Positions 2,012-28,636 of a stretch of 44,637 nucleotides of DNA are shown here, piece by piece. The stretch's first letter is position 1, and every line of letters begins with the position of its first letter. Under the pieces are notes generated by a model. The model made no database searches. It worked only from the letters and a program-made list of their open reading frames with translations, and was not told where the DNA came from. The position numbers and the translations under genes are program-made. Origin of the DNA: an uncultured Candidatus Saccharibacteria bacterium (GTDB lineage Bacteria; Patescibacteriota; CALEFQ01); assembly GCA_964559275.1 (NCBI GenBank), contig CAZLGC010000003.1, forward strand, positions 1 through 44,637, in the 5' to 3' direction.

Positions 2012-2141
2012 ATCAAACCCAAAATCCAAAAAGCAAACCCAAAGCAACTCCAAGTTTAAAGACAACTCCAAATGATTAGAGTTTTAATTTGAGCTTGGAG
2101 TTGCTTTGCTTTTGAACTTTGAACTTTGAGTTTGGGTTTTA
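2012..2141. repeat. About 130 nt imperfect palindrome of A/C-rich (CCAAA/CTCAAA) units
   Basis: There is a perfect 15-bp inverted repeat, caaagcaactccaag (2040..2054) against cttggagttgctttg (2094..2108). The outer arms also pair (aaacccaaa... against ...tttgggttt). It fills the rmuC-alr spacer. Confidence 0.7.
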
Positions 2142-2177
2142 TTGTCCTCTTTGAGGAAATTGTCTATAATATTATCC

Positions 2178-3311
2178 ATGCGTACCTCAATTGAAATCAA
2201 CCGTTCAGCGCTGACAAACAATATCAAGGTTTTTCGGAAACTCGTTGGTAAAAAGCGAGTTTTAAGCGTCGCTGTAAAGGCCAATTCCTACGGTCACGGT
2301 TTAGTGGAGGCTTCAGGAATTTTCGTCAAAGCCGGGGCGGACTGGCTGATTGTTGATTCGGTGGAGGAGGGGATTGAGTTACGGGAAGCCGGTATTGATG
2401 TCCCGATTCTGATTGTGGGCTACGTGCCCCTCAAACAATTAGGGAAGCTTTTTGACTACGATTTCCGGGCGGTAGTCTATAACAAGCAGACGGCAAAGAA
2501 ACTGTCGACTTTAGCCAACTCACGCAGAAAAAAAATCGGAGTCCATGTCAAAATCGAAACCGGCACCACCCGTCAGGGAGTCACCCCCAAAGAAATAATT
2601 CCGTTTATCAAGACAATAAAGTCCGATTATATCGATATCGAAGGGGCGCTGACTCATTTTGCCAATATTGAAGATGTCCTGGAGCATGATTTTGCGGATA
2701 AGCAGCTGGATATTTTTAAATCGACAGTTGAACTCTTGAAAGCTCATAAGCTGCCGCTCAAATATGTGCATTGTGCTAATTCCGGGGCGGCTATTCTTTT
2801 CCCGAAAACTCATTTCAACATGGTTCGGGTCGGAATCGGCGCTTACGGGATGTGGCCCTCCCAGGAAACTAAGCTGACGGCGATGAGAATGCACCGCAAT
2901 CAACTCGGCTTGCAGCCGGCGATGACGGTGAAATCGATGATTGCCCAGATAAAAGATGTCCCGGCCGGTAGTTATGTTGGCTACGGTTGTACTTACAAGA
3001 CGACTAAAAAATCAAAGATTGCCATTGTCCCGATTGGATACTTCGATGGTTATGACCGCAAGCTTTCTAATACTGGCTATGTTCTCATTCATGGGAAACG
3101 GGCGCCGGTGCGGGGGCGGGTGTGCATGAATATGATAATGGTTGATATTTCCGATATTTCCAACGTGCGGCTGGAAGACCCGGTGGTGATAATGGGTAAA
3201 CAGAAGAGTGAAAGCATTACAGCGGAACAACTGGGTGAGTGGATTGGCACGATAAATTATGAGGTGACGACGAGATTTAGAGAAGGCTTGCCGCGGGTTA
3301 TTAAGAAATAG
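2178..3311 (+). CDS. alr: Alanine racemase
   Basis: The PLP-lysine motif VKANSYGHG is present. The N-terminus MRTSIEINRSALTNNI aligns with Alr N-termini. I prefer the ATG at 2178 over the TTG at 2142 used by the ORF track. A TATAAT at 2163..2168 lies just upstream. Confidence 0.9.
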   Translation: MRTSIEINRSALTNNIKVFRKLVGKKRVLSVAVKANSYGHGLVEASGIFVKAGADWLIVDSVEEGIELREAGIDVPILIVGYVPLKQLGKLFDYDFRAVVYNKQTAKKLSTLANSRRKKIGVHVKIETGTTRQGVTPKEIIPFIKTIKSDYIDIEGALTHFANIEDVLEHDFADKQLDIFKSTVELLKAHKLPLKYVHCANSGAAILFPKTHFNMVRVGIGAYGMWPSQETKLTAMRMHRNQLGLQPAMTVKSMIAQIKDVPAGSYVGYGCTYKTTKKSKIAIVPIGYFDGYDRKLSNTGYVLIHGKRAPVRGRVCMNMIMVDISDISNVRLEDPVVIMGKQKSESITAEQLGEWIGTINYEVTTRFREGLPRVIKK

Positions 3312-3344
3312 GAACCCAAAAATCTAAAATAAATTAAAATTTTG

Positions 3345-3372
3345 AACTCCGCCGAGGCTGGGAGTTTTTTTG
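3345..3372 (+). terminator. Intrinsic terminator after alr
   Basis: aactcc-gccgaggctg-ggagtt is followed by ttttttt. Confidence 0.55.
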
Positions 3373-3410
3373 TTGAATTTTTATCTTGGGGTTTAAGCAC
3401 CAGGGTTGGA

Positions 3411-3455
3411 ACAAAAGAAAACGGGCGGCGAAAGCGTGTTGCTTTCGTCGCCCGT
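3411..3455 (-). terminator. Intrinsic terminator closing the GC-rich minus-strand block
   Basis: On the minus strand, acgggcgacgaaagc-aacac-gctttcgccgcccgt forms a stem of about 15 bp with one G-U pair, followed by tttcttttgt. It lies 8 nt past the AAA+ stop codon. Confidence 0.6.
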
Positions 3456-3462
3456 AGATTCA

Positions 3463-5241
3463 CTAGCGGATACCCAGGATCTCCAGTTCCTGAATTCGCG
3501 CCTCCCAGGCCAGTCTTTTCTCCGGAGTACTCGGCTCCGGCAGCAGGCTCTGGCGGGTGCAAGCTAGCATGGCCTGCAGACTCTGGTATTCTCTGGTCAA
3601 ACCGACGTTTGGCAGGATCTGATCCTCAATGGCAGCCAGGATCTCGTCGACAGTCAGTGTGCCGTCACGTCCGGCCTTGGCAACCAGTTCGTCCCGGAGT
3701 CCGGCGTAGGCAGCGGCGTAGTAACCGGTGGTAGCAGCTTCGATTCGGTCCATTTCCTCCGGCGAGAATTTCTCTCCGGAAGGCAGCACCGGCTTCAGCA
3801 TCCAGTTCAGGAAGTCCTTACGGTCAGCTTCACTCGGATCCAGAATGGGCAGAATCAGGCTGCCGGCCCGGCCAACGCGTCTGAGGTCCGGAGAGAGCTG
3901 ATGAATCCGGGCAGTGTCCAGCATCCAGAAGATGCGTCCTCGCCACTTGGGATCGGACATCATTTTCTGGAAAGCGGCTGTTGCCCGGCGCTCGGTAGGA
4001 TGAACATCCTTGCCGACGCCACCGAACTGTAGATCCGCTTCCTCGATGTAGACGACCGCTGCATGCAAGGCATCCAGTACTCGGCGCAGACGCTCGATCA
4101 GGATGTCGGTACCCCCGAATTTGCTGGAACGGAAGTTCTTCAGGATCAGTACCGGCAGGTGGCATTCGGCCGCGATGGCCTGGGCCAGAAACGACTTGCC
4201 GCTACCGATCGGGCCGCAAAGCACAGCTCCGGTTAGAGCTCCCGTGCCAGTTCGCTGGATACGAGGGATGAACTCTTTCGAAACGTACTTCTTCAGCTGG
4301 CTGGTTCCGATGACGTCTTTGAGGGTATGCTCCGGACGGAGAAACCCAACGACGTCTTCGGCGCCCAGTGAGGCCTGAATGAACTCCTCAACCTTATCGG
4401 AAACATCCTTGGCTCGAAGCTTTTGTCCGCTGTGAACGGATTCGCGTAGTAGCTGCAGAGTGGCAGCGGTCGAAAGACCGGCGCAGTGCTCGGCCAGCTT
4501 GGTCTGTGAGCTCCAGAGGCGCAGCTCCATAGCGTCAGGTAGTCCGCGGTTGAACCAGGAAATGACATGGCGGTGACTGGAGATGTCAGGGGTGGGAATG
4601 GCGACGTTCATAATCGTCGGGATCCGGAGCACATCGGCATTGATCTTGCTTCTGAGCTCCGAAATCATGACAACCGTGTCGCCACCGTTCGTGAAGGCGG
4701 GATCTGCGAACCAATCGCGACAGGTGATAACCCGTCGCCGGTCCGGCTCGAACAGTCGGGACATCTCGGTGGCAGGCAACAGGAAGTGCGCGTCTTCGAT
4801 GAGAATGAGCAGGGCTTTCGGCAGCACCAGCTGGCCTTGCTCGTTGCACCCGCGGGAGCAGGTGCACATTGCCCGCAGGAGCTCCAAAGCATCTTCGGGA
4901 TTTTTCGCGGCTTTGGCCAGTCTGACGGAGAACTCCTGTGAGCCTTTGGCCCGTCCGCCGGCCCATTGTAGCCACGCTTTTTCGAAAAGTGTACGGTCTT
5001 CCTTGGAGACGAATCGAATCGGTTGGTACGGCTTGTAGGTGATGATAATCCTGCCTTCGGCCCGATCCCAGCGCTCCACCAGGTACTTGTCCAAAGGGAC
5101 GTATTCCCCGATGGAATCGCCTTCGTCAGGCACGAAGAAGAGGTCATCGATGTTGCCGGTGAGCAACACGGCGTTGGCTTGGTGGGAGTTGATGATCTGT
5201 CCCAACCTGGCCATGAATGGATAGGTATAGGAGCGTTTCAT
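3463..5241 (-). CDS. AAA+ ATPase, classic-clade-like C-terminal module preceded by a degenerate ATPase-like N-terminal half
   Basis: 592 aa. Walker A is GPIGSGKS and Walker B is VVYIEEAD. The arginine-rich RRVGRAGSLILPILDP resembles the RPGRFD second region of homology. The N-terminal half shows LLTGNIDD and LILIEDAH at the positions expected for P-loop and Walker B. There is no signal peptide or TM segment. The start codon overlaps the upstream stop as ATGA. Confidence 0.8.
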   Translation of the reverse strand: MKRSYTYPFMARLGQIINSHQANAVLLTGNIDDLFFVPDEGDSIGEYVPLDKYLVERWDRAEGRIIITYKPYQPIRFVSKEDRTLFEKAWLQWAGGRAKGSQEFSVRLAKAAKNPEDALELLRAMCTCSRGCNEQGQLVLPKALLILIEDAHFLLPATEMSRLFEPDRRRVITCRDWFADPAFTNGGDTVVMISELRSKINADVLRIPTIMNVAIPTPDISSHRHVISWFNRGLPDAMELRLWSSQTKLAEHCAGLSTAATLQLLRESVHSGQKLRAKDVSDKVEEFIQASLGAEDVVGFLRPEHTLKDVIGTSQLKKYVSKEFIPRIQRTGTGALTGAVLCGPIGSGKSFLAQAIAAECHLPVLILKNFRSSKFGGTDILIERLRRVLDALHAAVVYIEEADLQFGGVGKDVHPTERRATAAFQKMMSDPKWRGRIFWMLDTARIHQLSPDLRRVGRAGSLILPILDPSEADRKDFLNWMLKPVLPSGEKFSPEEMDRIEAATTGYYAAAYAGLRDELVAKAGRDGTLTVDEILAAIEDQILPNVGLTREYQSLQAMLACTRQSLLPEPSTPEKRLAWEARIQELEILGIR

Positions 5242-6221
5242 CGTAGAGCCTTTTTGGTTCCGTGCTTGTCCCTGACCTCTTGCCAGAAAGTCCGAAAGTA
5301 ATCGGCTGTCTGCAGGATGTCGGGATCATACACGGCCCGAAAGATCTCTTCTCGTTGCTGGGCGAAATCGTGGTAGTCGATCTTCATGTCTGGGGCGTAG
5401 ACGGGAGCTGAGCGATCGTAAACGATGGTGGCGCCAGGAAAGGTCTCGAAAACCTGTTCCCAGTCCCAGTACTGCGAGATGCCGACTACGCGGTCGGCAA
5501 CCGCAATGCCGGAGTTGAGCTCGTGGGTGACCAGCACGATGCTGGTACCGGAGAAAGGCCCGCCTGCTTCCTTGACGGTGACATTGATCTTGAGGAGCAG
5601 CTGGATCAACACCTCGATCGAGCGTTCATCGAGCCCGGTAAAAGGCTCGTCCAGCAGCAGAATGTCCGGGCGCATGATCATTGCTTGCGCAATGGCGACC
5701 CGTCTTTTCATACCGCCGGAAAGCTGATAGGGGTACTTGCTGGCTGCTTTCTCCAGGCCGAAGTCGGCCAGAAGATCACGAGCCTGCTCGAGCTGCTGGC
5801 GTCTGACCCGAAACCATTTCTGCCAGCGGAAGAATTGATCCGGCAGGCTTAGGTCACGCAGCATCAGTCCGTAGGCGACGTTCTTGACCGTCGTCATATA
5901 CGGGAAAAGCGAGTTTTCCTGAAAGACGATGCCGCGATCTAGTCCGGGTCGGGTCACTTCTGCCGGGTCCCCATTATGGGGGCTGTCCGGCGGGGGGTGA
6001 ATGATCACCTTCCCGTTTTTGGCCAGCTGGGTTCCCAGAATGGCCTTCAGTAGCGTGGTTTTGCCACAACCGCTGGGGCCGACACAGGCTACTGCCTGGC
6101 CGCGCACCAGCTGGCAGTTGATCTCGTGCAAAACGTTGTGCGGATTTGCCGGGTCCCCGAACCACTGGGAGACGTGCTGGCATTCCAGAGCAATGTTTTG
6201 CTGCATGGTGTCTGCCGACAT
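5238..6221 (-). CDS. ABC transporter ATP-binding protein (NitT/TauT-like) with C-terminal extension
   Basis: Walker A GPSGCGKTT, Q-loop VFQENSLFP, signature LSGGMKRRV, Walker B LLLDEPFTGLD and H-loop VTHE are all present. I place the start at the ATG at 6221 (MSADTMQQ...), which overlaps the permease stop as TAATG and follows GGAGGAG. The ORF-track start at 6272 is less likely. Confidence 0.9.
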   Translation of the reverse strand: MSADTMQQNIALECQHVSQWFGDPANPHNVLHEINCQLVRGQAVACVGPSGCGKTTLLKAILGTQLAKNGKVIIHPPPDSPHNGDPAEVTRPGLDRGIVFQENSLFPYMTTVKNVAYGLMLRDLSLPDQFFRWQKWFRVRRQQLEQARDLLADFGLEKAASKYPYQLSGGMKRRVAIAQAMIMRPDILLLDEPFTGLDERSIEVLIQLLLKINVTVKEAGGPFSGTSIVLVTHELNSGIAVADRVVGISQYWDWEQVFETFPGATIVYDRSAPVYAPDMKIDYHDFAQQREEIFRAVYDPDILQTADYFRTFWQEVRDKHGTKKALR

Positions 6222-7030
6222 TATTCTCCTCCTTGTGGTAGGTACCACGGGCACAGCTTGCGGCGCAGCCACAGCAGTCCGCGGTTCAAGAGATAGGTTA
6301 CAAGCCCCAGTTCCGCCAGGTAGATGAAGATGACATTCATGTGCATCTGCCTCATCATGATGCGGAGCCGGAACCCGATGCCGACGTCAGCGATGATCCA
6401 CTCAGCTGCGATGATGGCGATAAACGCCAAGGCCATTTGGATCCTCACGCCGTCGATGATCTTGGGCAACACCGTGGGCACGATTGTGTCCATGATGTTT
6501 TCTGCACTGGTAGCACCGTAGGTGTACGTGCGGTCAATGTATTCATCCGGGATGTCCTTGACGGCCAAGCTGATTGAAAGAGCCAGCATGGGAATCACCA
6601 CGAAGGCAATCATGGCCACGAACATTGTTTCACCTGGGCTGAAAACAACGAAGAACGGCGCAATCAACGCCGTTACCGGTAGTGAACTGATCGGCACCAA
6701 CAAGGTTTCGCAAAAGGCTGATACTCGGGGATAACTCCCCATTAGTACTCCCAGCACCACTGCGATCACGCAGCCGATCAGCATGCCGAGTAGGACCCGG
6801 CGTCCGGTGGCGACTGAATCCATGATGATCCAGCGTTCGCCCTCGAACTCATCTTCCTGAAAGGCTTTCTTGAAGCCCTCGGCAAACTGCGTGGCATTGG
6901 GCATGGTGGTGTCGTTCGGGAAACGATGCTTTTGTCTGAGCATCAGTCCCGTATAGACGGCTACCACCAGCACAATTGCCAGCAAACCGATAGCGGTGCG
7001 CTGTCGGCTGGTAATTGGCTGACGAATCAT
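6221..7030 (-). CDS. ABC transporter permease (BPD_transp_1 type, NitT/TauT-like)
   Basis: 269 aa with about 6 hydrophobic helices. An EAA-like loop reads GATSAENIMDTIVPTVLPKIIDG. It lies between SBP and ATPase genes. Confidence 0.85.
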   Translation of the reverse strand: MIRQPITSRQRTAIGLLAIVLVVAVYTGLMLRQKHRFPNDTTMPNATQFAEGFKKAFQEDEFEGERWIIMDSVATGRRVLLGMLIGCVIAVVLGVLMGSYPRVSAFCETLLVPISSLPVTALIAPFFVVFSPGETMFVAMIAFVVIPMLALSISLAVKDIPDEYIDRTYTYGATSAENIMDTIVPTVLPKIIDGVRIQMALAFIAIIAAEWIIADVGIGFRLRIMMRQMHMNVIFIYLAELGLVTYLLNRGLLWLRRKLCPWYLPQGGE

Positions 7031-7144
7031 CCTTCACCTTCCTTTCTGTATCTTTCTCTAAGACATTTCCAGTTTTGATTTCTAGCATTGTCAAAGAACA
7101 ATGCGTTTTTCCTCCTTTCTTCAGACTGTGATAATTCCCAGTTT

Positions 7145-7191
7145 GAAGAAAAGAGGGATTGGCGCGAAGCTGGAAGCTTGCGCCAATCCCT
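7145..7191 (-). terminator. Strong hairpin plus T-tract after the SBP gene (internal attenuator/terminator)
   Basis: On the minus strand, agggattggcgcaagct-tcc-agcttcgcgccaatccct forms about 17 bp with one bulge, followed by cttttcttc. Confidence 0.65.
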
Positions 7192-7208
7192 AAGTTGTCA
7201 ACGAAAGG

Positions 7209-8264
7209 CTACTTGTCGTAGCCCTTGACCCAGGTGGGGTCGAAGCGGAGGTCGCAACGGCCGACTTCATCGGCGGTGCCATAGGCTACCGTCGGCGTTC
7301 GGTCGGTGGCGCCTCGAACCTTGATGAATCCCTGCTGATGGATCATGACCGGAGCCATGTGCTGCTCACTGAGGATCTTCAGGCCATCGGCCCGAGTTCC
7401 GTAGAACTTGCAGCGGGTCCGGATGTCCTTGATCTGCTCGGCAGTGAAGGAGCCGAACTTGGCTCCGACGGCTCGGTGCGCTCGGTCGCTCGTCGAGGCA
7501 TCGGGAGAATCCAGCAACTTGTTCAGCTCGTAGTAGACCTCCACGATCAGGCCGGCGAACCTGGCGCCTTCCGGTTTCTGGAAGACGTCCTGGCCCATCA
7601 CGACCATGTCGACGATTTCGCCCTCGATGGCCTTGGAATCGGCCACGACGTGATAGTCGGGACGCTTGGCCAAGGTTTCGGAGCGCATCGGTTCCCACAG
7701 GGCTCCGTACAGATTCTTGCCCTGTTGGATGGCGGCAGCGACCGCGTCCGGATCCATGGAGGCGAACGGGTATTCCTTCAGATCGAGCCCGGCCTCTTCC
7801 AGATTCCGAACGTAGTTGTACTCGGCCACGCTGACATCCAGGCCGTTGACGGGTTTCCCCTTCAGGTCGGTGAGAGCCTTGATGCTCTTGGGAACACAGA
7901 TGGCGTCCGCACCGTAGCTGGTCGAAGTTGGTAGAATCGCGACGGCGGCTCGCTGCGGCGACAAGATCAGGATATCCAGGTTGGTAAGGCAGGCAGCCTC
8001 ACATTCCCGGGCCCCGTACTTGCCGATGGTACCATCGTAGCTGTCCCACATGATCTGCATATCGACGCCCCACTTCTCTTCGAGTGGGCCGACCTTGCCG
8101 GCATCCTGGTGGATGAGGCGGGCGGCGTGGGCGACGAAGAAGGCGGACCAGCTGGGATACTCGGAAACGGAGATGCGGTAGACCGGCAGCTTGCCGGCCA
8201 TGGTGGTGACCGGAACGATGAGCAGGCCCAGCGCCACGATCAGAATGGTCAAACGGTACTTCAT
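7209..8264 (-). CDS. ABC transporter substrate-binding protein (NMT1/SsuA/TauA-like), secreted
   Basis: The signal peptide is MKYRLTILIVALGLLIVPVTTMAG. The protein has a type-II periplasmic-binding-fold pattern (LWEP...). I place the start at the ATG at 8264, which is 9 nt downstream of AAGGAGG. Confidence 0.8.
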   Translation of the reverse strand: MKYRLTILIVALGLLIVPVTTMAGKLPVYRISVSEYPSWSAFFVAHAARLIHQDAGKVGPLEEKWGVDMQIMWDSYDGTIGKYGARECEAACLTNLDILILSPQRAAVAILPTSTSYGADAICVPKSIKALTDLKGKPVNGLDVSVAEYNYVRNLEEAGLDLKEYPFASMDPDAVAAAIQQGKNLYGALWEPMRSETLAKRPDYHVVADSKAIEGEIVDMVVMGQDVFQKPEGARFAGLIVEVYYELNKLLDSPDASTSDRAHRAVGAKFGSFTAEQIKDIRTRCKFYGTRADGLKILSEQHMAPVMIHQQGFIKVRGATDRTPTVAYGTADEVGRCDLRFDPTWVKGYDK

Positions 8265-8294
8265 TTTTCTTTCCTCCTTCACGATTGATGAACG

Positions 8295-8337
8295 AAAAAG
8301 GTAGCCCGTGGTCAGGTAGTGTCACCGGACCACGGGC
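8295..8337 (-). terminator. Intrinsic terminator after the PspA-like gene
   Basis: A perfect 10-bp stem forms between gcccgtggtc (8304..8313) and gaccacgggc (8328..8337). On the minus strand it is followed by tacctttttcg. Confidence 0.6.
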
Positions 8338-8357
8338 GAATTTACGGTGCTGAGGCG

Positions 8358-9194
8358 CTAGTCCTCGGGAACGGAGATGTCCACCTCGGCGGCGAGCTGC
8401 TGCTCGGCCTCGCTTGGCTTCTTCTCCTCATCCTCGCCCCAGAGCTCGGCGTCGAGATCATCCAGGTGCTCGGAGCCTTCGACAGCCTCCAGCAGTTCGT
8501 CGAGCTGGCGGTCGCCGGCAGTTCCGGCCATAGCTTCGGCCGAATCGGCCCGGGCCACAGCCTCGCGTCGCTGTCGCTCGAGTGTCGAGAGACGCTCGCC
8601 GGTGCGGTCTTCGGAGATCCCAGCTTCCATGTCGGCGAGTCGCTGTCGTTCCTGGGCGGACAGAACGTCGGCGATGGCCTCGTGCTTGTCCTGAGCGACC
8701 TTCTCCATGCGGCGCTGCTGTTCTCGGAGGCGACGGACGTTGCGGTCGATCCGCTCGGTATACTGCTTGATGTTGGTCTGCAGCTCTTCCTCGCGCTGCT
8801 TCTTCTCGGCCAGAGTGGTCGAGTAGTCCTTGAAGGCATCGCGGAATTTGATGAAATCCGGATCCTTCTCGATGGCGGCGCGATCCAGGCCTTCACCTTC
8901 GAGCCTGGCCTTGATCTGCGCCAGCTTCTGCTTGGCGGCGATCACGGCGCGCTCGAACTTGGTGATGTCGCCGGTCAGGGCTTCGAGCTGTGCGAGACGT
9001 CGCTCGCGCTCGGCCCGGATGCTGGCATCGACATCCATGTACTCGCGGATGTTCGTCTTCAGCTCTCGGATGACGGCGTCGTACTCAGCCCTCATGGCGT
9101 CGGGATCCTTGGCGATTCGGTCCGCAGCCCGATCGGCGCGACCCGTGAAGATCGCGATGAACGAGCGCAAGACCCTTCCCAGTGCTCTGAACAT
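8358..9194 (-). CDS. PspA/IM30 family (ESCRT-III superfamily) protein
   Basis: 278 aa, almost entirely heptad-like helices. The N-terminal amphipathic segment MFRALGRVLRSFIAIF is followed by KDPDAMRAEYDAVIRELKTNI, matching the PspA pattern (A)EDPxK..L.Q.I.dm. The C-terminal tail is acidic. AAAGGAG lies upstream. Confidence 0.7.
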   Translation of the reverse strand: MFRALGRVLRSFIAIFTGRADRAADRIAKDPDAMRAEYDAVIRELKTNIREYMDVDASIRAERERRLAQLEALTGDITKFERAVIAAKQKLAQIKARLEGEGLDRAAIEKDPDFIKFRDAFKDYSTTLAEKKQREEELQTNIKQYTERIDRNVRRLREQQRRMEKVAQDKHEAIADVLSAQERQRLADMEAGISEDRTGERLSTLERQRREAVARADSAEAMAGTAGDRQLDELLEAVEGSEHLDDLDAELWGEDEEKKPSEAEQQLAAEVDISVPED

Positions 9195-9220
9195 TCTGTG
9201 CTCCTTTCTGTTGTTGCAAG

Positions 9221-9982
9221 TTATTCTTCTTCAAGAAGTTCCTCGCAAACCTCAGGGTTTAGCATGTCACGTTGCTGCTGGCGGACTTTCTTGTCAATCC
9301 GCAAGCGTTCTTCCAGTTCGTGCCTGATGGAAGATAGAGTGGTGTCAGTGGCTGGTGCCGCTACCGGCTCCAGATCCTGGATACCACTCACAATTCCGGT
9401 AAGAGACTGGACACTGGCTTCGACCTCGGTAATGAGATCTCGCCGTCTAGCCTCTAGGGCCTCACGGGCCGGTCCGTGGTTTAGATCATCCACCTTGCGA
9501 TAAAGAGCCAGCGATTGTTCCAACTGGTCAACGCAGGAGTAGAAGAGTTTATTCACCAACGACATGACGTCGTGGGTAAGGCGACCACTAAGGGCCCTGG
9601 CCCAGGGTTCGTTTTGCTCAAACCCAGCTCTGAGCACTTTTGTGATCTCACGGAGTTCTTGTAGTAGCTGTTCGGTACGGGGATCGTCATCGTAGTGCAA
9701 GTCTGTGTAGAGCTTGTCCAATCTGGCGGTTCGCTTTTCCTGCTCTTTGCTCTGAACACGGATGCGCGTTTCTTCCGCCAGCTTGTCAGACTCCAGTGTG
9801 AAGCGAGTGATGGCGATACCAGGTCCCAGAACAATGCCGACCAGGCCACCCAGAGCAGCCAGCGGCATACTCAGAGCGACACCGGCACCCAGGGCTGTTA
9901 CTCCGGCCAGAAAGGGGCCGATGGTAACCGGACTGGTAATGAGATTCAAGAGGTATTCCTTACGGAATGCCTTTCTGTCCAT
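9221..9982 (-). CDS. Membrane protein: N-terminal TM hairpin plus long helical domain, family unknown
   Basis: 253 aa. Two hydrophobic helices are present (ITSPVTIGPFLAGVTALGAGVAL and LAALGGLVGIVLGPGIAI). The rest is helical and charged. A strong AAAGGAGG SD lies upstream. The gene ends 27 nt before the PspA-like start. Confidence 0.6.
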   Translation of the reverse strand: MDRKAFRKEYLLNLITSPVTIGPFLAGVTALGAGVALSMPLAALGGLVGIVLGPGIAITRFTLESDKLAEETRIRVQSKEQEKRTARLDKLYTDLHYDDDPRTEQLLQELREITKVLRAGFEQNEPWARALSGRLTHDVMSLVNKLFYSCVDQLEQSLALYRKVDDLNHGPAREALEARRRDLITEVEASVQSLTGIVSGIQDLEPVAAPATDTTLSSIRHELEERLRIDKKVRQQQRDMLNPEVCEELLEEE

Positions 9983-10009
9983 AGCGGCCTCCTTTCTGAG
10001 GCAAGGGGA

Positions 10010-11572
10010 TCAGTAGGGTGCCTGTGCCAGTTCCAGCACGACACACGCCTGATCCGTTTTCGATTTCTTGGCGGTTTCCGCTCGCAGGCGGTTCGCCGGG
10101 ATTCCGTAGTTCTTGAGATAGGTAACGACAGCGTCAGCTCGGCGCTTGGCCAAGAGCTTGTTGGCATCGCTGTCACCGTCGCCCAGGGTGTGTCCCTTGA
10201 CCTTGATGTAAAAGTCGGACAACACCTTGAGCTCCTCGGCAGCGGTTTCGATGTCAGTTTCCGAAAAGGCACTGATATCGGCACTGCCGCGCCTGAATTC
10301 GATCGGTGCAATGCGCTTGCTGCCGGACGGCACCAGTGCTTGCCACTGCGCTTCAGTAAGTGCGGGAAGCACCGTAGTGCCCCTCACTCCGGCGAGATCA
10401 TTCGCCGAGGGGCCGGCACCATCGATGAGATTGACTCGCTTGGCGGGGTGGAAACCCTCGCCGTGCAGCGCGCGCAGAATCCCGTCGTAGTAGAGCGTAT
10501 GCTCCTTTCCCGGCAGGGGATGGTGAGCCAGAGCGTTGGTTGGCAGGAGAACTTTCTCGATCAGGAACGAAATCACGTCCTCGAGAGGACGGATTCCGGG
10601 GTTCTGCTCGATGTTGAAATAAGCGTAGTTCTCCTTGCAGTTTGTCCACCTGATGCCAGCGGCGATCTGTTCGGCTTGCTGGCGGCTGACACTTTCGCCC
10701 TGAGCCTTGGCGTCGGCTACAATCAACTCAACCATGCGGTCTTGCTGAGAGTAGTAGTAAAGGGCTTTGAGATAAGCCTCGACGATGGTTTTGACCAAGT
10801 CCGGGTTTTCGCCCAGAAAAGACCTTTCTGCGTAGAGACCATCCAAGATACAGCCCTTACACTGGGACGAATCCAGGAGCACGATCACATCGGGATCTTT
10901 GCGCGCCAGCGACACGTACGGCTCCCACAGGACATAAGCCCGGGGAAGTGCACGGTTGGCGCTCATCATCTCCCGATAGACGGCTTCGGCGTCATCTCGG
11001 TGGATAGCCCAGTCGGTCGGCATCATATCCAGAGCCCACTGAGCAACCATTACTTGCGCAATGGTTTCAGACGGCGAGCTAGGCGGCAAAACGATCCGGC
11101 CTTCGGCGCAGTTGAGGGCGTCGATGTTGGGAACGGCGCTCTTGAATGCCACGATAGCATCCGCGCCGACCGTCTCATCAATTCCCACGATCTGCGAGGC
11201 CGGGTACAAGTTGCCGGCTTTCACGCCCGCCTTGATGTAGCTTCCGATCGGGAAGACTGCGAACGGGACTTTGCCAGCCGCGAGCATCTCGACTCGCTTC
11301 TGGTAGTCCAGAACCGGTTTGTAAGCCCAGCGAATGCCTTGCTTGGCCAGAGCGTTTTCGAAGCTCTGGGAGCGCAAGATGGCATAACCGCTGAACCCGT
11401 CGCCCAGCCATTCCAGCTCGGTGTGATACTGGGACTGCGAACTGGTCGACTTGACCAGCCGCCCTTTCATCATCGGCTTGACGATGAAACGATATCCCAG
11501 CGCCAGTGCGGCGATGAGGACAATCCAGGCAACCACCATGATAAGGATGCCCTTACGTGAACGTTCGGCCAT
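10010..11572 (-). CDS. Membrane-anchored SBP-like (NMT1-type) domain fused to a C-terminal OmpA-like domain
   Basis: 520 aa. The N-terminal TM helix is ILIMVVAWIVLIAALALGY. The central region resembles sulfonate/nitrate-type binding proteins (VLWEPYVSLA). The C-terminus VKGHTLGDGDSDANKLLAKRRADAVVTYL matches the OmpA/MotB peptidoglycan-binding motif (GHTD..G...N..LS..RA.AV..YL), but the canonical Asp is replaced. Confidence 0.7.
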   Translation of the reverse strand: MAERSRKGILIMVVAWIVLIAALALGYRFIVKPMMKGRLVKSTSSQSQYHTELEWLGDGFSGYAILRSQSFENALAKQGIRWAYKPVLDYQKRVEMLAAGKVPFAVFPIGSYIKAGVKAGNLYPASQIVGIDETVGADAIVAFKSAVPNIDALNCAEGRIVLPPSSPSETIAQVMVAQWALDMMPTDWAIHRDDAEAVYREMMSANRALPRAYVLWEPYVSLARKDPDVIVLLDSSQCKGCILDGLYAERSFLGENPDLVKTIVEAYLKALYYYSQQDRMVELIVADAKAQGESVSRQQAEQIAAGIRWTNCKENYAYFNIEQNPGIRPLEDVISFLIEKVLLPTNALAHHPLPGKEHTLYYDGILRALHGEGFHPAKRVNLIDGAGPSANDLAGVRGTTVLPALTEAQWQALVPSGSKRIAPIEFRRGSADISAFSETDIETAAEELKVLSDFYIKVKGHTLGDGDSDANKLLAKRRADAVVTYLKNYGIPANRLRAETAKKSKTDQACVVLELAQAPY

Positions 11573-11646
11573 GACGGCTCCTCCTTCCTTCTGTTTTCAT
11601 CTGAAAACCTGAGGTTGTTGTTTCGTTGACAAGTTGTAAATGTTCC

Positions 11647-11745
11647 GAAGAGGCACAGGCCTCTTCTTTCCCAAAAAACCAAGTGTTTGGTTATTCATGG
11701 AAAGGAGAGGTGGGAGGGGCTGCCACTTGCGTGACAACCCCTCCC
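11647..11745 (-). terminator. Cluster of three hairpins in the 200-nt spacer between the vWA gene and the next gene (candidate internal terminator/processing site)
   Basis: The hairpins are gggagggg...cccctccc (11712..11745, about 15 bp including G-U pairs, GCAA loop), aaccaa-acac-ttggtt followed by tttttt on the minus strand (11673..11692), and gaagaggc-acag-gcctcttc (11647..11666, perfect 8 bp). Confidence 0.45.
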
Positions 11746-11772
11746 TACCAGCTGTGTGTGTTTGTGCCGTTG

Positions 11773-12711
11773 CTACAGACTGCCGAACATGGCTGCCAGC
11801 AGGCAAATGACGATCACCACCGCTATGATGATCAGGAGGATCATCAGAAAGCCGGATCCGTCACCGGTCCCAGGCGGAACGGTGGTGCCGGGCTGCTGGC
11901 TGGTATTGGCGCTTGTCTGTGAGCTGCTGTTGGTCTGGTTGGCAGCGTGGGCTGCCTGTGATTGAGGCGATTCGCCGATCGGGTGGTTGCCGGAACTGGC
12001 GAGCGCGTTGATGGCAGCGCTGGCAAGTTCCAACGGAACGGAAGCCAGGAGGTCGTAGGGATCCTCGCCGCCGTAGTCATCGCTGCCGCCGTCGCCGACT
12101 TCAGCCAGTACATCGGAGATGGCTCCCTTCAGTACGGCCGAGTCTTTGACGTTGCTGTAGCTGTGGACTTTGGTGGCCAAGATGTGGTCACTGTCCATCT
12201 CAACACCGATGCAGTCAACACGGATACCTCGGGACAGGATGTCCGGGGTATAGCGATTGACCAGGTTGGTGTCCTGGGCCTGGCCGTCCGTGATTACCAG
12301 CAGGCGGTAGGTCCCGTACCCATGCTGCTTCTGTCGTGAGGCAAGCAGGGCGTCGGCGGCGACCTTCATGTAGGCCCCCAAAGGGGTGCCCCCACCGGCT
12401 TTGACCCGGCTCACCGCATTCTTGAATGCGGGCTTGCGCAGGGGTCCCAGCGGATACGTCCAACGTGTCTTGTCCTCGGGAAAAACCAGGAGGCCGACAT
12501 TGGTTGCATCCGGAATGGAATCGATGGCCGTCTTGACCGCCTCGCGGGCATCCCTGATCTTCTTGCCCTTCATCGATCCCGAAGAATCGAGGAGGATGAC
12601 CAGGTTGTCCGTGAACTCGGCGGCGCTGGCCAGACTCGCCGACAGTAGCCAGACGGCTACCAAGGCGAGGCTGATCCAGGGGAGAGCGTGAATCTTCTTC
12701 ATGCTACTCAC
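11773..12711 (-). CDS. Secreted von Willebrand factor A (vWA) domain protein with C-terminal TM anchor
   Basis: The signal peptide is MKKIHALPWISLALVAVWLLSASLASA. MIDAS motifs are DSSGSMKG, GGTPLG and ITDGQAQD. A Ser/Thr/Gln/Asn-rich linker precedes the hydrophobic tail FLMILLIIIAVVIVICLLAAMF. Confidence 0.85.
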   Translation of the reverse strand: MSSMKKIHALPWISLALVAVWLLSASLASAAEFTDNLVILLDSSGSMKGKKIRDAREAVKTAIDSIPDATNVGLLVFPEDKTRWTYPLGPLRKPAFKNAVSRVKAGGGTPLGAYMKVAADALLASRQKQHGYGTYRLLVITDGQAQDTNLVNRYTPDILSRGIRVDCIGVEMDSDHILATKVHSYSNVKDSAVLKGAISDVLAEVGDGGSDDYGGEDPYDLLASVPLELASAAINALASSGNHPIGESPQSQAAHAANQTNSSSQTSANTSQQPGTTVPPGTGDGSGFLMILLIIIAVVIVICLLAAMFGSL

Positions 12712-12714
12712 CCC

Positions 12715-14550
12715 CTAAAAGTCGAAGTCAGCCGGCTGCATTGCCTCCGCTGACACCGACACCAGCGCGCACTCGACACGCATGTTGGCAGCCGCTTCCT
12801 GCTTGTTCCGCGGCTTGGCGTTGAACGGTTCCCGGATACCGACTCCCTGGACGGTGATCTGGCTGGCATCCAGCCGGATTCCCTTGGACTTGGCATAAGC
12901 CAGGAGTTCATCCCGGAAAGCCTCAGCCCGGTCGGCAGAGAGTCTTAGTGCCACCGTCATCACTTCCCGTGGGTCCCACTGGGCGTGACCGTCGAACTGG
13001 CCACTTTCCACCAGGCGGACCATCTCCTTGGTTGCAGTCAGATTCAGGGGTCTGCCGTTGAGAGAATAGCTCCAGTTACCTCGGGATCCGCTTCGTTTGA
13101 TCATCTCCTTGGCCATGCCGGCGTTGATCAGGTGTAATAGCGTCTTGGTTGGATCGGTGTGTCCCCGAACAGCGACGGTAGCACCGGAGTACTGGCTGGC
13201 CAGCTTGATGACCTCGTCGAAATCACGGCCGTACTTGGACCGGTCGAAGGTGCGCTGATTGGGTTCGAAGTAGGTGCAGAAGCTGTACTTGGTCTTCTCA
13301 TCCAGCTGTCCGCCGGCGGCCAGGGCTTCGATCTCGTCGGCTACGGCTTCCGGCTTGAAACGGGCGGTCTGGACCACGGAGGTGTTTCGGAGGTTGTTCT
13401 TGAAGGTGGGGGAGTTCCAATCGAGGGCGGACGGGAGCAGATCGATGCGGCGAGTGGCGTAGCCCAGCGTCGTGGCCATGTCTAGCGACTTGGCGTTGAA
13501 GGCGTCAAAGCCGGTGACGTTGTTCTCCTCAGTGAAGAAAACGACATTGCCAGGGTGACCAACCGGCTGACAGTCCAGGAAAAGGCCGTGGGCTTCATCC
13601 ATGTTCGGGACCACGTCTTTGCCGAAGAAGTTGATGGCGGTCTGCAGCGTGGCGCGGTAGTTGCGATCGCGCGGGTTCTTGCGCAGCTGCACCATCTTCT
13701 CGGCTTCCTGGAGATACGCAACTGTCAGCTTTTCGCACCAGGCGGAGTGGCTCTGGTAGAAATCGCTGCGCACAGCGACGACGTCCGCGATGGAACGTCC
13801 CAGCTCCGAAGTCGAAATCAGACGGTGTGCATCGGCGACCGTACCCTCGGCTCCCGGATTCTCCGGGTCGCCAAGCAAACCGAACATATCGGGTGTGACG
13901 ACGAAGCAGGCATCGATGGATCGATCCTTGGCGAATTTCACCGCCGGCCCCTTGGGACCGCTGATGTCATCCACCCAGACGACCTTGATGTCTGACCAGG
14001 TCAGGCCGGCCGTTTTCAGCATGTCATCGAGCATGCCCACGTGTGGTCCGCCCTTCTGCAGACATACTGTTGCTCCCTTCAACTGGGAGAGCTGCTTGAT
14101 GTGCTTGCGGGCGATACAGTGGTCACCGCGCGACCAGGTCATCTGGAACAGAATGATCGGCTTGGTGCGCGAATCGTTGCCGACGGCTTCGCTCGCCATG
14201 GCAATCATGCGGTAGGTGCCGCGCAAGAACGGAGTCTTGCCGGACATGTAGTTGCGGACCTGCCCGTAGAAGTCATCGCCGGGAATCAGCTTGATGCTGA
14301 CTCCGAACTTGTTGAGCGTCGATCCCCGCTGAGTGATGACGTTGTTCCCGTTGCCGGAGAACCACATGTATTCACCACCCCACAGAATCGCGGGCATGTC
14401 GTAGGTCTGGGCCTCACGGACGGTTCCGATTGTGACCCGGCCGAGATCCTGGCTGAAGCTCGAGACGAGCTTACCGGCATTCGCCGGCACGGTCAGGGTG
14501 GCGATCACCAGGATCGCCAGGAACAGAGTGTAACTTCGCATCTTCATCAT
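12715..14550 (-). CDS. Secreted SBP-like domain fused to a C-terminal OmpA-like domain carrying an insertion
   Basis: 611 aa. The signal peptide is MRSYTLFLAILVIATLTVPANA. The central region has a type-II binding-protein-like fold. The C-terminus has VAVRGHTDPTK and, about 75 aa later, LSADRAEAFRDELLAY, which is a split OmpA-like motif. AAAGGAGG lies 5 nt upstream of the ATG. Confidence 0.7.
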   Translation of the reverse strand: MMKMRSYTLFLAILVIATLTVPANAGKLVSSFSQDLGRVTIGTVREAQTYDMPAILWGGEYMWFSGNGNNVITQRGSTLNKFGVSIKLIPGDDFYGQVRNYMSGKTPFLRGTYRMIAMASEAVGNDSRTKPIILFQMTWSRGDHCIARKHIKQLSQLKGATVCLQKGGPHVGMLDDMLKTAGLTWSDIKVVWVDDISGPKGPAVKFAKDRSIDACFVVTPDMFGLLGDPENPGAEGTVADAHRLISTSELGRSIADVVAVRSDFYQSHSAWCEKLTVAYLQEAEKMVQLRKNPRDRNYRATLQTAINFFGKDVVPNMDEAHGLFLDCQPVGHPGNVVFFTEENNVTGFDAFNAKSLDMATTLGYATRRIDLLPSALDWNSPTFKNNLRNTSVVQTARFKPEAVADEIEALAAGGQLDEKTKYSFCTYFEPNQRTFDRSKYGRDFDEVIKLASQYSGATVAVRGHTDPTKTLLHLINAGMAKEMIKRSGSRGNWSYSLNGRPLNLTATKEMVRLVESGQFDGHAQWDPREVMTVALRLSADRAEAFRDELLAYAKSKGIRLDASQITVQGVGIREPFNAKPRNKQEAAANMRVECALVSVSAEAMQPADFDF

Positions 14551-14597
14551 TGGTTCCTCCTTTATATGAAGATGGGCCTCGCGGCCAGTTTCAGTTT

Positions 14598-14626
14598 ACA
14601 AAAACAAAGAAGGCTCCCGCCTTCCT
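14598..14626 (-). promoter_or_regulatory. Terminator-like hairpin inside the 5' leader of the GC-rich block (possible attenuator)
   Basis: On the minus strand, aggaaggc-ggga-gccttctt forms 8 bp with one G-U pair, followed by tgtttttgt. It lies about 50 nt upstream of the first start codon. Confidence 0.35.
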
Positions 14627-14731
14627 TAGGTTTGGCACAAACTTTGAATGTACAAAGTGTTTTTCGCTACGACAGAATTTTACCTCCTTGTCAAGTTAAA
14701 TCGTCGTGGCAAAATTGAAACACAGCTATTC

Positions 14732-14760
14732 TTAATAGCAGAAGAATATGTTTTTGTCAA
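14732..14760 (-). promoter_or_regulatory. Sigma70-like promoter for the GC-rich block
   Basis: On the minus strand, TTGACA (14755..14760) is separated by 17 nt from TATTAA (14732..14737). The implied leader is about 175 nt. Confidence 0.45.
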
Positions 14761-14805
14761 ATATTTGCGGCCATTGCTATGCGACAAATTGCATTTATTG
14801 GCAAG

Positions 14806-14839
14806 CAAAAAAAGAGAGCAACGACTAGTGTTGCTCTCT
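14806..14839 (-). terminator. Intrinsic terminator after the 138-aa hypothetical gene
   Basis: A perfect 10-bp stem, agagagcaac-gactagt-gttgctctct, is followed on the minus strand by ttttttt. Confidence 0.65.
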
Positions 14840-14855
14840 TTGTATAATCTGCTTT

Positions 14856-15272
14856 CTATTTAGTGTAAGCTTTCTTGATATCGCTAATTTCAGGAGGAAC
14901 TTCTGTTTCCATTGTCACTAGCTCTTCGCCCGGGGCCTGAACTTCGATCACCAGCTTCCACGGTTCGCCTTTGACAATGTAGACAGCGGCCCAGTGATCT
15001 TTGTCTCCCGGCTTGTAGGCGCCGCAGAGATTGCGGACCATCGTTTTTTCCTCGCCGGACTTGATAGCGGCGTCGAAATCTTTGGGCCAGATATCTTCAA
15101 TATTCTGGGTGCTGGCAAAGTCAGCATAGACTTTGAGCAGCGGTACCCCTTCAAGGCCCATCTGGCGGCTCATGTCGTCTGAGCCCATTTCTTTTTTGAC
15201 TGTTATCTTTTTGGGGACGCCGTCAGCCATAGTGACGATATCCTGTTCCAAAAGAACTTCACCTTCTGCCAT
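14856..15272 (-). CDS. Hypothetical protein (138 aa)
   Basis: This is an uninterrupted ORF with backbone-like composition and its own terminator. I recognise no family motif. Confidence 0.55.
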   Translation of the reverse strand: MAEGEVLLEQDIVTMADGVPKKITVKKEMGSDDMSRQMGLEGVPLLKVYADFASTQNIEDIWPKDFDAAIKSGEEKTMVRNLCGAYKPGDKDHWAAVYIVKGEPWKLVIEVQAPGEELVTMETEVPPEISDIKKAYTK

Positions 15273-15382
15273 AAGTTTTGTTTTAAGATTCTTACTTGCT
15301 TGTTTTCATTATAGCATTTTTTTGTTGCAAACTCAACCAAAATTGCTTTATCTGAGGCGGTTTTTTTGTTAAAATAGGTTTA

Positions 15383-28622: not shown

Positions 28623-28636
28623 AAAAATCAACATAC

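Follow-up and report, generated by a model that had tools for sequence, protein, structure and literature searches.

Operons in which bacterial PspA co-occurs with a double-AAA protein whose N-terminal AAA module is inactive were described by Ravi et al. (mSystems 2024, PMC11237479), and the longer operons add an ABC (ATP-binding cassette) ATPase, a permease, a PBPB+OmpA protein and a membrane-anchored divergent Snf7. In their example, OGG56892.1 from Candidatus Handelsmanbacteria, the gene order is PspA, SIG+PBPB+OmpA, a transmembrane (TM) permease, an ABC ATPase, SIG+TM+Snf7 and AAA-AAA. For this operon class, to which the paper gives neither a name nor an experiment, an ATP-dependent remodelling comparable to that by Snf7/Vps4 and linked to solute transport was proposed. 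A 2025 review (PMC7619361) states that a Vps4-like ATPase "appears absent in bacteria" and leaves the control of PspA/Vipp1 polymer dynamics open, and we found no experimental paper on the PspA and double-AAA dyad in the literature. Here we analysed a contig of 44,637 nucleotides (CAZLGC010000003.1 of assembly GCA_964559275.1, hereafter the window) from an uncultured Candidatus Saccharibacteria bacterium, a member of the Candidate Phyla Radiation (CPR). Positions 3411-14760 of the window hold a nine-gene block that is very likely an envelope cassette acquired from distant bacteria, in which a PspA-like protein and an AAA ATPase are encoded together with an importer and wall-tethered binding proteins.

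All nine genes lie on the minus strand and are numbered here from gene 1 (12715-14550) to gene 9 (3463-5241). They encode, in this order, a solute-binding protein (SBP) fused to OmpA, a von Willebrand factor A (vWA) protein, a second SBP-OmpA protein, a TM protein, PspA, a free SBP, a permease, an ABC ATPase and the AAA protein. Both the block and the class of Ravi et al. comprise a PspA family member, a double AAA protein whose N-terminal module is dead, an ABC ATPase with a permease, a secreted SBP joined to OmpA, and a helical protein anchored in the membrane, and the five co-operonic components of that class are present on one strand within 11 kb. The order and number of genes are different, as the published operon has six genes and starts with PspA. 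Compared by description with the published example, the block contains two SBP-OmpA genes along with genes for a free SBP and for vWA, and it reached its host, a CPR bacterium, by transfer. The Snf7 assignment of the SIG+TM+Snf7 component was not reproduced for gene 4. The vWA component is mentioned neither in the main text of PMC11237479 nor in one supplementary file, which also contains no Patescibacteria. The block thus belongs to a class that is known from computational work but has been neither named nor characterised. New are the vWA-containing nine-gene form and its occurrence in a CPR genome. An earlier sequence-only reading of the window had held that the gene content matches no named operon, which is correct in that the class has no name, but the class had already been described and the gene order recurs in 24 other loci.

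Two further systems invite comparison. As in ESCRT-III/Vps4 systems (CdvB/CdvC; Snf7/Vps4), a gene of a polymer-forming superfamily, sometimes in several paralogues, stands beside a classical-clade AAA gene. In contrast to those systems, the ATPase of the cassette has two Cdc48-like modules and no MIT domain, the polymer protein belongs to the PspA/Vipp1 branch rather than to Snf7, and an extracytoplasmic layer of SBP-OmpA, vWA and ABC components is added. Gene 9 is therefore not a member of the Vps4/CdvC group, which has an N-terminal MIT domain and a single AAA module, although by analogy it may work like Vps4. With the Psp/Lia systems (E. coli PspF-ABC, B. subtilis LiaIH) the block has in common a PspA-family effector with a predicted N-terminal amphipathic helix and a small membrane-anchored partner. 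It differs from them in that Pfam and NCBIfam detected no PspF-type enhancer-binding AAA+, PspB/PspC or LiaI/LiaF domains in the block, and its ATPase is a classical unfoldase-type AAA and not a transcription factor.

Insertion of a foreign block next to alr

With a GC content of 0.579, the block stands out from its left (0.467) and right (0.478) flanks, and in a sliding window the GC content rises from approximately 0.45-0.49 to 0.55-0.62 between approximately 3500 and 14500 and then falls back. The GC content at third codon positions (GC3) ranges from 0.70 to 0.80 for eight genes of the block, with gene 4 (9221-9982) at 0.575, and from 0.41 to 0.60 for all 28 backbone genes. The tetranucleotide correlation to the backbone, calculated for 3.7-kb segments, is 0.22-0.41 in the three block segments and 0.87-0.94 in the nine others. 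Translation signals differ as well. The duplex energy with the anti-Shine-Dalgarno (anti-SD) sequence, computed on the 20 nt upstream of each start codon, averages -10.5 kcal/mol in the block (-7.9 or lower in eight of nine genes) and -1.7 kcal/mol in the backbone (-7 or lower in two of 28 genes), with a Mann-Whitney p of 1.4e-5. For these calculations, starts were taken as called in public assemblies (8264, 6221 and 12702) instead of those of the longest open reading frames (ORFs). GC, GC3, tetranucleotide and SD statistics agree on a GC-rich, SD-rich block in an AT-leaning, SD-poor backbone, as the sequence-only reading had proposed, and the block still carries the high GC, codon bias and SD sites of its donor.

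On the left, the block is preceded by the backbone gene alr (2178-3311, plus strand), which encodes alanine racemase (Pfam Ala_racemase_N/C in public gene calls). The last backbone sequence on this side is the alr terminator hairpin (3345-3372, plus strand), which was read from the sequence and is conserved in position in the intergenic regions of two relatives, L015 and L016. On the right, a 138-aa gene (14856-15272, minus strand) with its own terminator at 14811-14841 is followed by a helicase-nuclease gene (15383-18307, plus strand) encoding a UvrD-type helicase with a PD-(D/E)XK nuclease domain, as indicated by the UvrD-helicase and PDDEXK_1 domains of the syntenic genes of L016 and a third relative, L017, and by blastn collinearity. 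The 138-aa gene is resident, because it has backbone composition (GC3 of 0.576, no SD) and is 36.5% identical (E = 1e-18) to a 118-aa gene adjoining alr in L017. The block had been placed between alr and the helicase gene; this holds on the alr side, but on the other side the 138-aa gene intervenes.

The three relatives were found through the nearest Alr homologues, which are 87%, 85% and 70% identical. The source of the 85% homologue names it "Patescibacteria group bacterium", and L017 contributes the 70% homologue from a 1.14-Mb chromosome record. The contigs of L015, L016 and L017 follow the gene order of the window (Tim44-like, cdd, rmuC, alr, helicase-nuclease, pheS, pheT, gyrB), and the spacer between alr and the helicase gene is a variable spot in this CPR lineage: it is approximately 200 bp long and free of genes in L015 (11177-11412), holds one 72-aa gene in L016 (9102-9568) and two small genes of 118 and 169 aa in L017 (11177-12593), and contains the 138-aa gene and the 11-kb block in the window (3312-15382). 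In blastn, window positions 2014-3346 and 15413-15849 align to neighbouring stretches of L015. Because the site is empty in all three syntenic relatives, the block is an insertion, and because the flanking genes are resident, the foreign segment lies between the alr terminator and that of the 138-aa gene. It covers approximately 3373-14810, or approximately 11.4 kb, in the convergent alr/138-aa intergenic region, where an insertion breaks no promoter.

The AAA protein is encoded on 13 public contigs, ten of which (L001-L010; ENA, JGI and Logan assemblies from different samples) were compared with the window. They are 99.94-100% identical to it, and the left junction is spanned by all ten and the right junction by five. 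The nine distinct single-nucleotide differences within the species are too few to assess selection. A separate look-up by the backbone alr reported the same neighbourhood for eight contigs, with the AAA gene adjoining alr in the three places listed. Taken together, these data leave us with high confidence that the block is a real, well-delimited horizontal acquisition. Like classical genomic islands, it combines atypical composition, absence from close relatives and a variable intergenic spot. Unlike them, it has no integrase or transposase, tRNA or flanking repeats: no integrase or transposase domain was detected among the block proteins in Pfam and NCBIfam, no tRNA was found, and there are no direct or inverted repeats at the boundaries. 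These searches bear out what had been noted by eye. The description as a foreign island without mobility genes is likewise upheld, by the Patescibacteria backbone, the empty sites in three relatives and the lack of CPR bacteria among the named homologues, which are described in the next section.

Homologues of the block and distribution of the cassette

Among 5.8 billion clusters, the best homologues of the AAA protein are 47-49% identical, none falls between 49% and 100%, and those that are named belong to Verrucomicrobiota, Planctomycetota or Hydrogenedentes. All recovered homologues of the block proteins are at most 50% identical, and the named ones come from Verrucomicrobiota, Kiritimatiellia, Lentisphaerae, Poribacteria, Hydrogenedentota and similar groups, with no CPR bacterium among the organism-named homologues. 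When one genome per species was scanned, at least 524 genomes were found to encode a relative of the AAA protein. Taxonomy was inspected for the best 80 of these, in which the AAA identity is 43-49%; they include Verrucomicrobiota, Kiritimatiellia, Lentisphaerae, Poribacteria, Hydrogenedentota, Sumerlaeota, Desulfobacterales, Acidobacteriota and others, and no CPR bacterium. 

The closest whole cassette, L099, comes from a JGI metagenome and is 36-50% identical protein by protein. In a neighbor-joining (NJ) tree of the AAA protein, the window sequence groups with that of L099 (84/100), and the pair joins Kiritimatiellia and Lentisphaerae (80/100). Both branches are long and this placement is provisional.

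To survey the cassette, the ORFs of 78 loci were searched with the nine window proteins and with hidden Markov models built from them. The full order of genes 1-9 is present in 24 loci from Verrucomicrobiota, Kiritimatiellia, Sumerlaeota, Desulfobacterales and CSSED10-310, and 13 more loci from the same taxa are collinear but interrupted by a contig end. In 27 loci (Poribacteria, Hydrogenedentota, Acidobacteriota and contigs labelled Nitrospiraceae) gene 5 and gene 9 stand alone, and in 11 loci from Poribacteria gene 4 and gene 9 accompany two to four copies of gene 5. The remaining three loci, from Verrucomicrobiota, hold genes 7-8-9 with no adjacent gene 5. From these arrangements, the usual core of the cassette consists of gene 5 and gene 9. 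The nine-gene order is the usual form among bacteria of the Planctomycetota-Verrucomicrobiota-Chlamydiota group and relatives (PVC). Its recurrence in at least 24 other species shows a widespread family and not a one-off, and answers the question of gene-order conservation that the sequence-only reading had raised.

The AAA gene had no match in plasmids or GenBank phages. However, AAA homologues with 32-41% identity are encoded on five IMG/VR contigs of 50-298 kb that are classed as viral (L105-L109: IMGVR_UViG_3300029267_003325, 3300017989_005036, 3300015263_000599, 3300037467_003067 and 3300014205_002439). Four of the five carry versions of the cassette at local GC, with two to three extra genes before the AAA gene, including a T4 Pnk-like kinase. 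Their phage-type neighbours include a gp32-like single-strand DNA-binding protein, a phrog_16 helicase, an ADP-ribosylglycohydrolase and an RF-1 fragment, and no capsid or terminase gene was found within the 10-kb flanks. One of the five contigs was recovered from the metagenome that also yielded the window species. These contigs may be huge phages that carry a PspA/AAA/ABC envelope module. In the NJ tree their AAA copies do not group with the window copy, and they are not the direct donor.

The PspA-like protein and its AAA partner

Gene 5 (8358-9194, minus strand) encodes a 278-aa protein that was assigned at the level of its family to divergent PspA/IM30 proteins of the ESCRT-III superfamily. 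The family was assembled from the neighbouring genes of the AAA homologues, since a k-mer-based homologue search with gene 5 returned two proteins only, and comprises 46 aligned members (alignment A2). Its profile matches the Vipp1/PspA structures 8qbv, 8qbw and 6zvr (E = 1.6e-4 to 2.7e-4) in a collinear manner, with profile positions 39-95 corresponding to chain residues 30-86 and positions 135-233 to residues 101-199. Pfam PF04012 (PspA_IM30) is matched by 30 of the 46 members at E <= 1, with a best value of 2.4e-9. At the N-terminus, the motif MF(R/G)A(I/L)GRW.KA.GYLLTG is conserved across the family (window copy: MFRALGRVLRSFIAIFTG), and this segment has the predicted features of the amphipathic membrane-binding helix alpha0. 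At the other end, a conserved EF-D-L motif and a variable acidic linker are followed by an invariant ...LPE tail, which varies to ELPL in Poribacteria and to ...SVPED in the window. This C-terminal tail is a candidate recognition tag for a partner ATPase.

Gene 9 (3463-5241, minus strand) encodes a type II classical AAA ATPase of 592 aa, in which Pfam AAA covers residues 340-462. Its sequence matches in the PDB are Cdc48, VAT and p97. The AlphaFold2 (AF2) model has a pLDDT of 89.9 and aligns in Foldseek over its full length (approximately 600-670 columns) with the tandem-AAA proteins Rix7, p97, Cdc48 and Msm0858, at E values of approximately 1e-17, and with Pex1/6, so that two tandem modules are present. 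The first module, in the N-terminal 320 residues, is degenerate and has TGNIDD at the position of the P-loop. The second contains Walker A (GPIGSGKS at 343-350), Walker B (IEEAD at 399-403, with the family-invariant E401) and the arginine fingers R454 and R455, which are invariant in the family. Judging from these motifs, the second module is predicted to be active and the first inactive. The protein therefore shares with Cdc48/p97/VAT, Rix7 and Msm0858 (PDB 5e7p) the full-length tandem-AAA fold and the Walker A, Walker B glutamate and arginine fingers of the second module, but differs from Cdc48-type unfoldases in lacking an N-terminal substrate/adaptor domain, in the lost P-loop of the first module, and in two substitutions of the window copy, glutamate for aspartate in Walker B and lysine for tryptophan in the pore loop. 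Together, the assignments of genes 5 and 9 make their identity as a PspA and double-AAA pair highly probable.

The divergence of the window ATPase is shared in part by the related cassette L099. In a separate count of 218 columns with a conservation of at least 90%, the AAA protein of L099 has 40 deviations, 19 of which are at positions that also deviate in the window. Because of these shared positions, the divergence appears largely to predate the transfer, and an unsampled donor lineage, rather than decay within the CPR host, seems to account for much of it.

Gene 4 (9221-9982, minus strand) encodes a membrane-anchored, all-helical protein of 253 aa whose family is present in 42 loci. Its hydrophobic region at approximately 19-61 fits two TM helices, which are followed by a helical cytoplasmic domain. 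The protein has no Pfam, PDB or fold match. A profile search of the PDB retrieved no ESCRT-III chain, hhalign against the PspA-like profile gave a probability of 3.8%, and the AF2 model built from the single sequence, whose pLDDT of 66.8 is too weak to exclude a fold, had no Foldseek match at E <= 0.001.

Envelope binding proteins and importer

Genes 1 and 3 encode the two SBP-OmpA proteins. Gene 1 (12715-14550, minus strand; 611 aa) has a signal peptide, an SBP-like domain and an OmpA-like domain with an insertion, the last located between GHTD at 463 and LSADRA at 537. Its Pfam matches are OmpA at 6.2e-5, below the cut-off, and NMT1 at 0.009, and its homologues match NMT1 at 1e-5 or lower. 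Gene 3 (10010-11572, minus strand; 520 aa) has an N-terminal membrane anchor, an SBP-like domain of the NMT1/SsuA type and an OmpA-like peptidoglycan-binding domain with GHTL at 460 and LAKRRA at 474. It matches Pfam OmpA at 5.7e-13 (above the cut-off), NMT1 at 0.004 and NCBIfam TIGR03427 at 1e-8, and its homologues match NMT1 or NMT1_2. In both proteins, Pfam and the GHTD.../(N)xxLSxxRA motifs identify the domain as OmpA-like. Gene 2 (11773-12702, minus strand; 309 aa) encodes a secreted vWA protein with hydrophobic segments at both ends, in which the VWA domain (Pfam PF00092, 9.8e-16) is followed by a Ser/Thr/Gln-rich linker and a C-terminal membrane anchor. The domain contains the DxSxS motif of a metal ion-dependent adhesion site (MIDAS) as DSSGS, at residue 42 of the 312-aa ORF and residue 39 of the called 309-aa protein. 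A MoxR-vWA pairing of the BatA type was considered and dropped, as the ATPase is a cytoplasmic double AAA of the classical clade and the vWA protein is secreted.

Genes 6-8 encode a complete ABC importer. Gene 6 (7209-8264, minus strand; 351 aa) is a secreted, TauA/SsuA-like SBP with an N-terminal hydrophobic signal segment (NCBIfam TIGR03427, 5e-25), gene 7 (6221-7030, minus strand; 269 aa) the permease (Pfam BPD_transp_1, 1e-13; NCBIfam SaoP, NtrB, TauC-like), and gene 8 (5238-6221, minus strand; 327 aa) a NitT/TauT-type ATPase with a C-terminal extension (Pfam ABC_tran, 3e-29), whose best NCBIfam matches are PhnT2 (3.7e-40), SaoA (1.7e-38) and the taurine ATPase (1e-37). The best matches of all three genes are thus among NitT/TauT importers (SsuABC, TauABC, NrtABC; TIGR03427 "urea carboxylase-associated" SBP), from which the cassette differs in its two extra OmpA-fused SBP-like domains without a partner permease and in scores far below the cut-offs. 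Because the NCBIfam scores of genes 6-8 are all below the family cut-offs, the substrate of the importer cannot be assigned.

A recent duplication of the SBP-like domains of genes 1, 3 and 6 was rejected, since they have no mutual BLASTP similarity. An anti-phage defence system was also rejected, as PADLOC gave generic matches only: mad3, AriA (ABC), LmuB (1.4e-4; coiled coil) and TRIP13 (9.5e-4; AAA).

Transcription signals and other features of the window

From gene 1 to gene 9, the intergenic distances are 12, 200, 27, 26, 93, 178, -1 and -4 nt, with an overlap of 1 nt between genes 7 and 8 and an ATGA overlap between genes 8 and 9, in agreement with the earlier account of nine minus-strand genes with overlaps. 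All nine ORFs are intact across 11 kb, with no frameshift or stop. The block ends in an intrinsic terminator (3411-3455, minus strand; -25.2 kcal/mol, z = -6.07) followed by a U tract (UUUUCUUUUGUU). At its other end, a promoter-like element was read from the sequence at 14732-14760 (minus strand), consisting of TTGACA, a 17-nt spacer and TATTAA with TGn just upstream. Of the promoter and terminator ascribed to the block, the terminator is well supported by its fold, and the promoter is a consensus match that is absent from the promoter scan output. Between this element and gene 1 lies a 5' leader of approximately 175-180 nt (14551-14731, minus strand; fold of -51.4 kcal/mol, z = -2.9), in which the terminator scan picked out a hairpin (14605-14628) that resembles a terminator, with a T run behind it and a possible role as an attenuator. 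A search for riboswitches and known RNAs in Rfam gave no family anywhere in the window, the leader included.

The only two large intergenic gaps of the block are both occupied by stem-loops on the minus strand. One, with a U-rich tail, lies between the SBP gene 6 and the permease gene 7 (7140-7208; -29.5 kcal/mol, z = -7.2), and the other follows the vWA gene 2 (11700-11772; -36.7 kcal/mol, z = -6.0). The block may therefore consist of three transcription or processing units (genes 1-2, 3-6 and 7-9), or the hairpins may stabilise the upstream mRNA. The notion of a single-strand nine-gene block is correct as to the strand, but two strong internal hairpins suggest that it may not form a single operon. 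The same two gaps contain a 15-nt inverted match (7192-7206 and 11621-11635). Opposite the block genes, the plus strand has antisense ORFs of 394 aa (8319-9503) and 621 aa (9695-11560) without domain evidence; they were rejected as genes, being a usual by-product of high coding-strand GC3.

Three observations concern the backbone and a relative. At 28592-30310 (plus strand), a 572-aa protein adjoining dCTP deaminase is an unusual fusion of MtrA-like, thymidylate-synthase-like and PterinBD-DUF4346 parts. A GGDEF-domain gene (39379-40527, minus strand) is the sole backbone gene with a full AGGAGG SD site (-10.3 kcal/mol). L015, the closest relative by Alr, encodes a bacteriorhodopsin-family protein (PF01036; positions 3053-3700) a few kb from the syntenic region.

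Proposed mechanism

In the mechanism that we propose, transcription would start near 14725 and proceed through the leader. Gene 5 would polymerise on the cytoplasmic face of the membrane by means of its N-terminal amphipathic helix, and the two-TM protein of gene 4 may nucleate, anchor or organise this polymer. A Cdc48-like AAA hexamer whose first ring is inactive and whose second ring is active would thread or extract subunits, possibly engaging the conserved ...LPE tail of gene 5, and would thereby turn the polymer over. The action of gene 9 on gene 5 would then be the functional counterpart of that of Vps4 on ESCRT-III. Outside the membrane, the two SBP-OmpA proteins of genes 1 and 3 would tie a ligand-binding domain to the peptidoglycan, the membrane-anchored vWA protein of gene 2 would use its MIDAS site to bind a partner, and the NitT/TauT-type importer would receive its solute from the free SBP of gene 6. 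As a whole, the system would link envelope or solute status to membrane maintenance. We put the disassembly model forward tentatively, as a serious possibility rather than the probable course of events. A bolder version, in which the cassette family is the true bacterial counterpart of ESCRT-III/Vps4, with the AAA protein disassembling a PspA polymer through the LPE tail, wired to peptidoglycan-anchored ligand sensors and an importer and apparently mobile enough to occur on huge-phage-like contigs and be captured by an ultra-small CPR bacterium, is in our judgement doubtful.

Alternative explanations

Of the ways in which the block could have come to its place other than by transfer from a distant bacterium, an assembly chimera, i.e., the joining of a high-GC contig of another organism to a CPR contig, would account for the sharp compositional steps at both ends, and the source of the window is a metagenome. 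Its probability is virtually negligible given that contigs from three public collections agree across the junctions (ten on the left, of which five also on the right), that the alr look-up gives the same junction, and that each junction falls within ordinary intergenic DNA flanked by terminators; a chimera, which the sequence-only reading had asked to exclude, is thereby effectively refuted. Vertical inheritance, with a cassette ancestral in the CPR lineage, lost from the relatives and atypical in composition for functional reasons, draws on the alr-helicase spacer, whose content of zero, one or two small genes indicates that deletions occur there, and on the large divergence of the block proteins from all known homologues. 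It would require at least two losses to explain the three relatives without the block (Alr 70-87%), and it runs counter to the departure of GC3, tetranucleotide and SD signatures from the 28 backbone genes, to the absence of CPR bacteria from the named homologues and the best 80 of at least 524 genomes, and to the nesting of the AAA sequence in PVC diversity in the NJ tree, so that we consider it very improbable. Entry on a huge phage or another mobile element, whose vehicle genes have since been lost or never integrated, is a variant of transfer that is suggested by the IMG/VR contigs, on which AAA homologues and in four cases cassette versions stand amid phage-type genes, once in the same metagenome. 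But the phage-like copies are more distant from the window than the bacterial ones and apart from it in the tree, GenBank phages and plasmids gave no matches, the window has no phage, integrase or transposase genes and no att-like repeats, and the viral status of these contigs is itself putative, with no capsid or terminase in the 10-kb flanks. We regard this route as quite unlikely.

As to function, the cassette might be a system for solute uptake and wall tethering, in which the AAA protein serves the transporter or secreted components through quality control or the extraction of membrane proteins, and PspA is a passive stress buffer. Three SBP-type domains and a complete importer take up most of the coding capacity, the three loci with adjacent permease, ABC and AAA genes do without PspA, and Cdc48-type ATPases are generally known to pull out membrane proteins in other systems. 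On the other hand, most of the 78 loci have a PspA-like gene directly upstream of the AAA gene or of intervening ABC genes, 27 have the PspA-like and AAA genes without a transporter, 11 have two to four PspA paralogues beside the AAA gene, and the invariant C-terminal tail of the PspA-like family suits recognition, all of which makes this alternative unlikely. Somewhat less likely than entry on a phage is that the block is dead cargo, a recent neutral or decaying acquisition that is unexpressed or non-functional in the CPR host. The unameliorated composition, the dependence of the block on SD sites that the host genes lack, and the D400E, W374K and 46 deviations at conserved positions of the AAA protein would fit such an explanation. 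It is difficult to reconcile with nine intact ORFs over 11 kb, with the presence of the block in every contig of the species from the alr look-up (eight reported, three places listed), with the sharing of much of the divergence by L099, and with the retention of the checked motifs (DSSGS, GHTD/GHTL, LSxxRA-type and Walker A).

Several findings weigh against an acquired PspA/AAA envelope cassette that works in its present host. The host barely uses SD sites, and any translation of the block there is putative. As the best 80 of at least 524 genomes were inspected, there may be other CPR carriers; no donor above approximately 50% identity is known or sampled, and the long branches in the NJ tree may reflect long-branch attraction. 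By itself, gene 5 of the window matches nothing in Pfam (E <= 10) or the PDB, so that its earlier designation as PspA-like stands for the family profile but not for the window copy alone. An ESCRT-III likeness was not shown for gene 4, with Snf7 matching none of 34 members in Pfam searches member by member. The three loci in which permease, ABC and AAA genes are together without an adjacent PspA gene raise the possibility that the AAA protein acts on something other than PspA. Finally, the window AAA protein is the most divergent of 83 sequences. Of 217 columns with a conservation of 90% or more, 46 deviate in this protein, compared with a median of three and a maximum of 29 in the others, and the 46 include the replacement of D400 by E in Walker B and of the near-invariant pore-loop W374 by K. 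Its activity could be altered or lost.

Significance

The cassette is otherwise mainly found in large-genome bacteria of the PVC group, Sumerlaeota and Desulfobacterales, and its capture by a CPR bacterium is unusual. This organism, whose syntenic relative L017 has a chromosome of approximately 1.1 Mb, has kept an 11-kb envelope system, or approximately 1% of a genome of that size, without a visible mobility gene. In the bolder version above, the cassette might there help to maintain the envelope or act where the bacterium touches its host cell. Donor-type SD signals in an SD-poor host offer a natural test of the expression of foreign operons in CPR bacteria. The copies on phage-like contigs would, if confirmed, be of separate interest; should the contigs prove to be viral, huge phages would be further carriers of the cassette. 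Beyond this organism, the cassette family gives a PspA-type protein a classical AAA unfoldase of its own, a pairing that extends over hundreds of species and in Poribacteria includes expansions of PspA paralogues that are reminiscent of ESCRT-III. The family is thus a concrete, testable and largely overlooked candidate for ATP-driven PspA turnover, or for a bacterial ESCRT-III/AAA machine.

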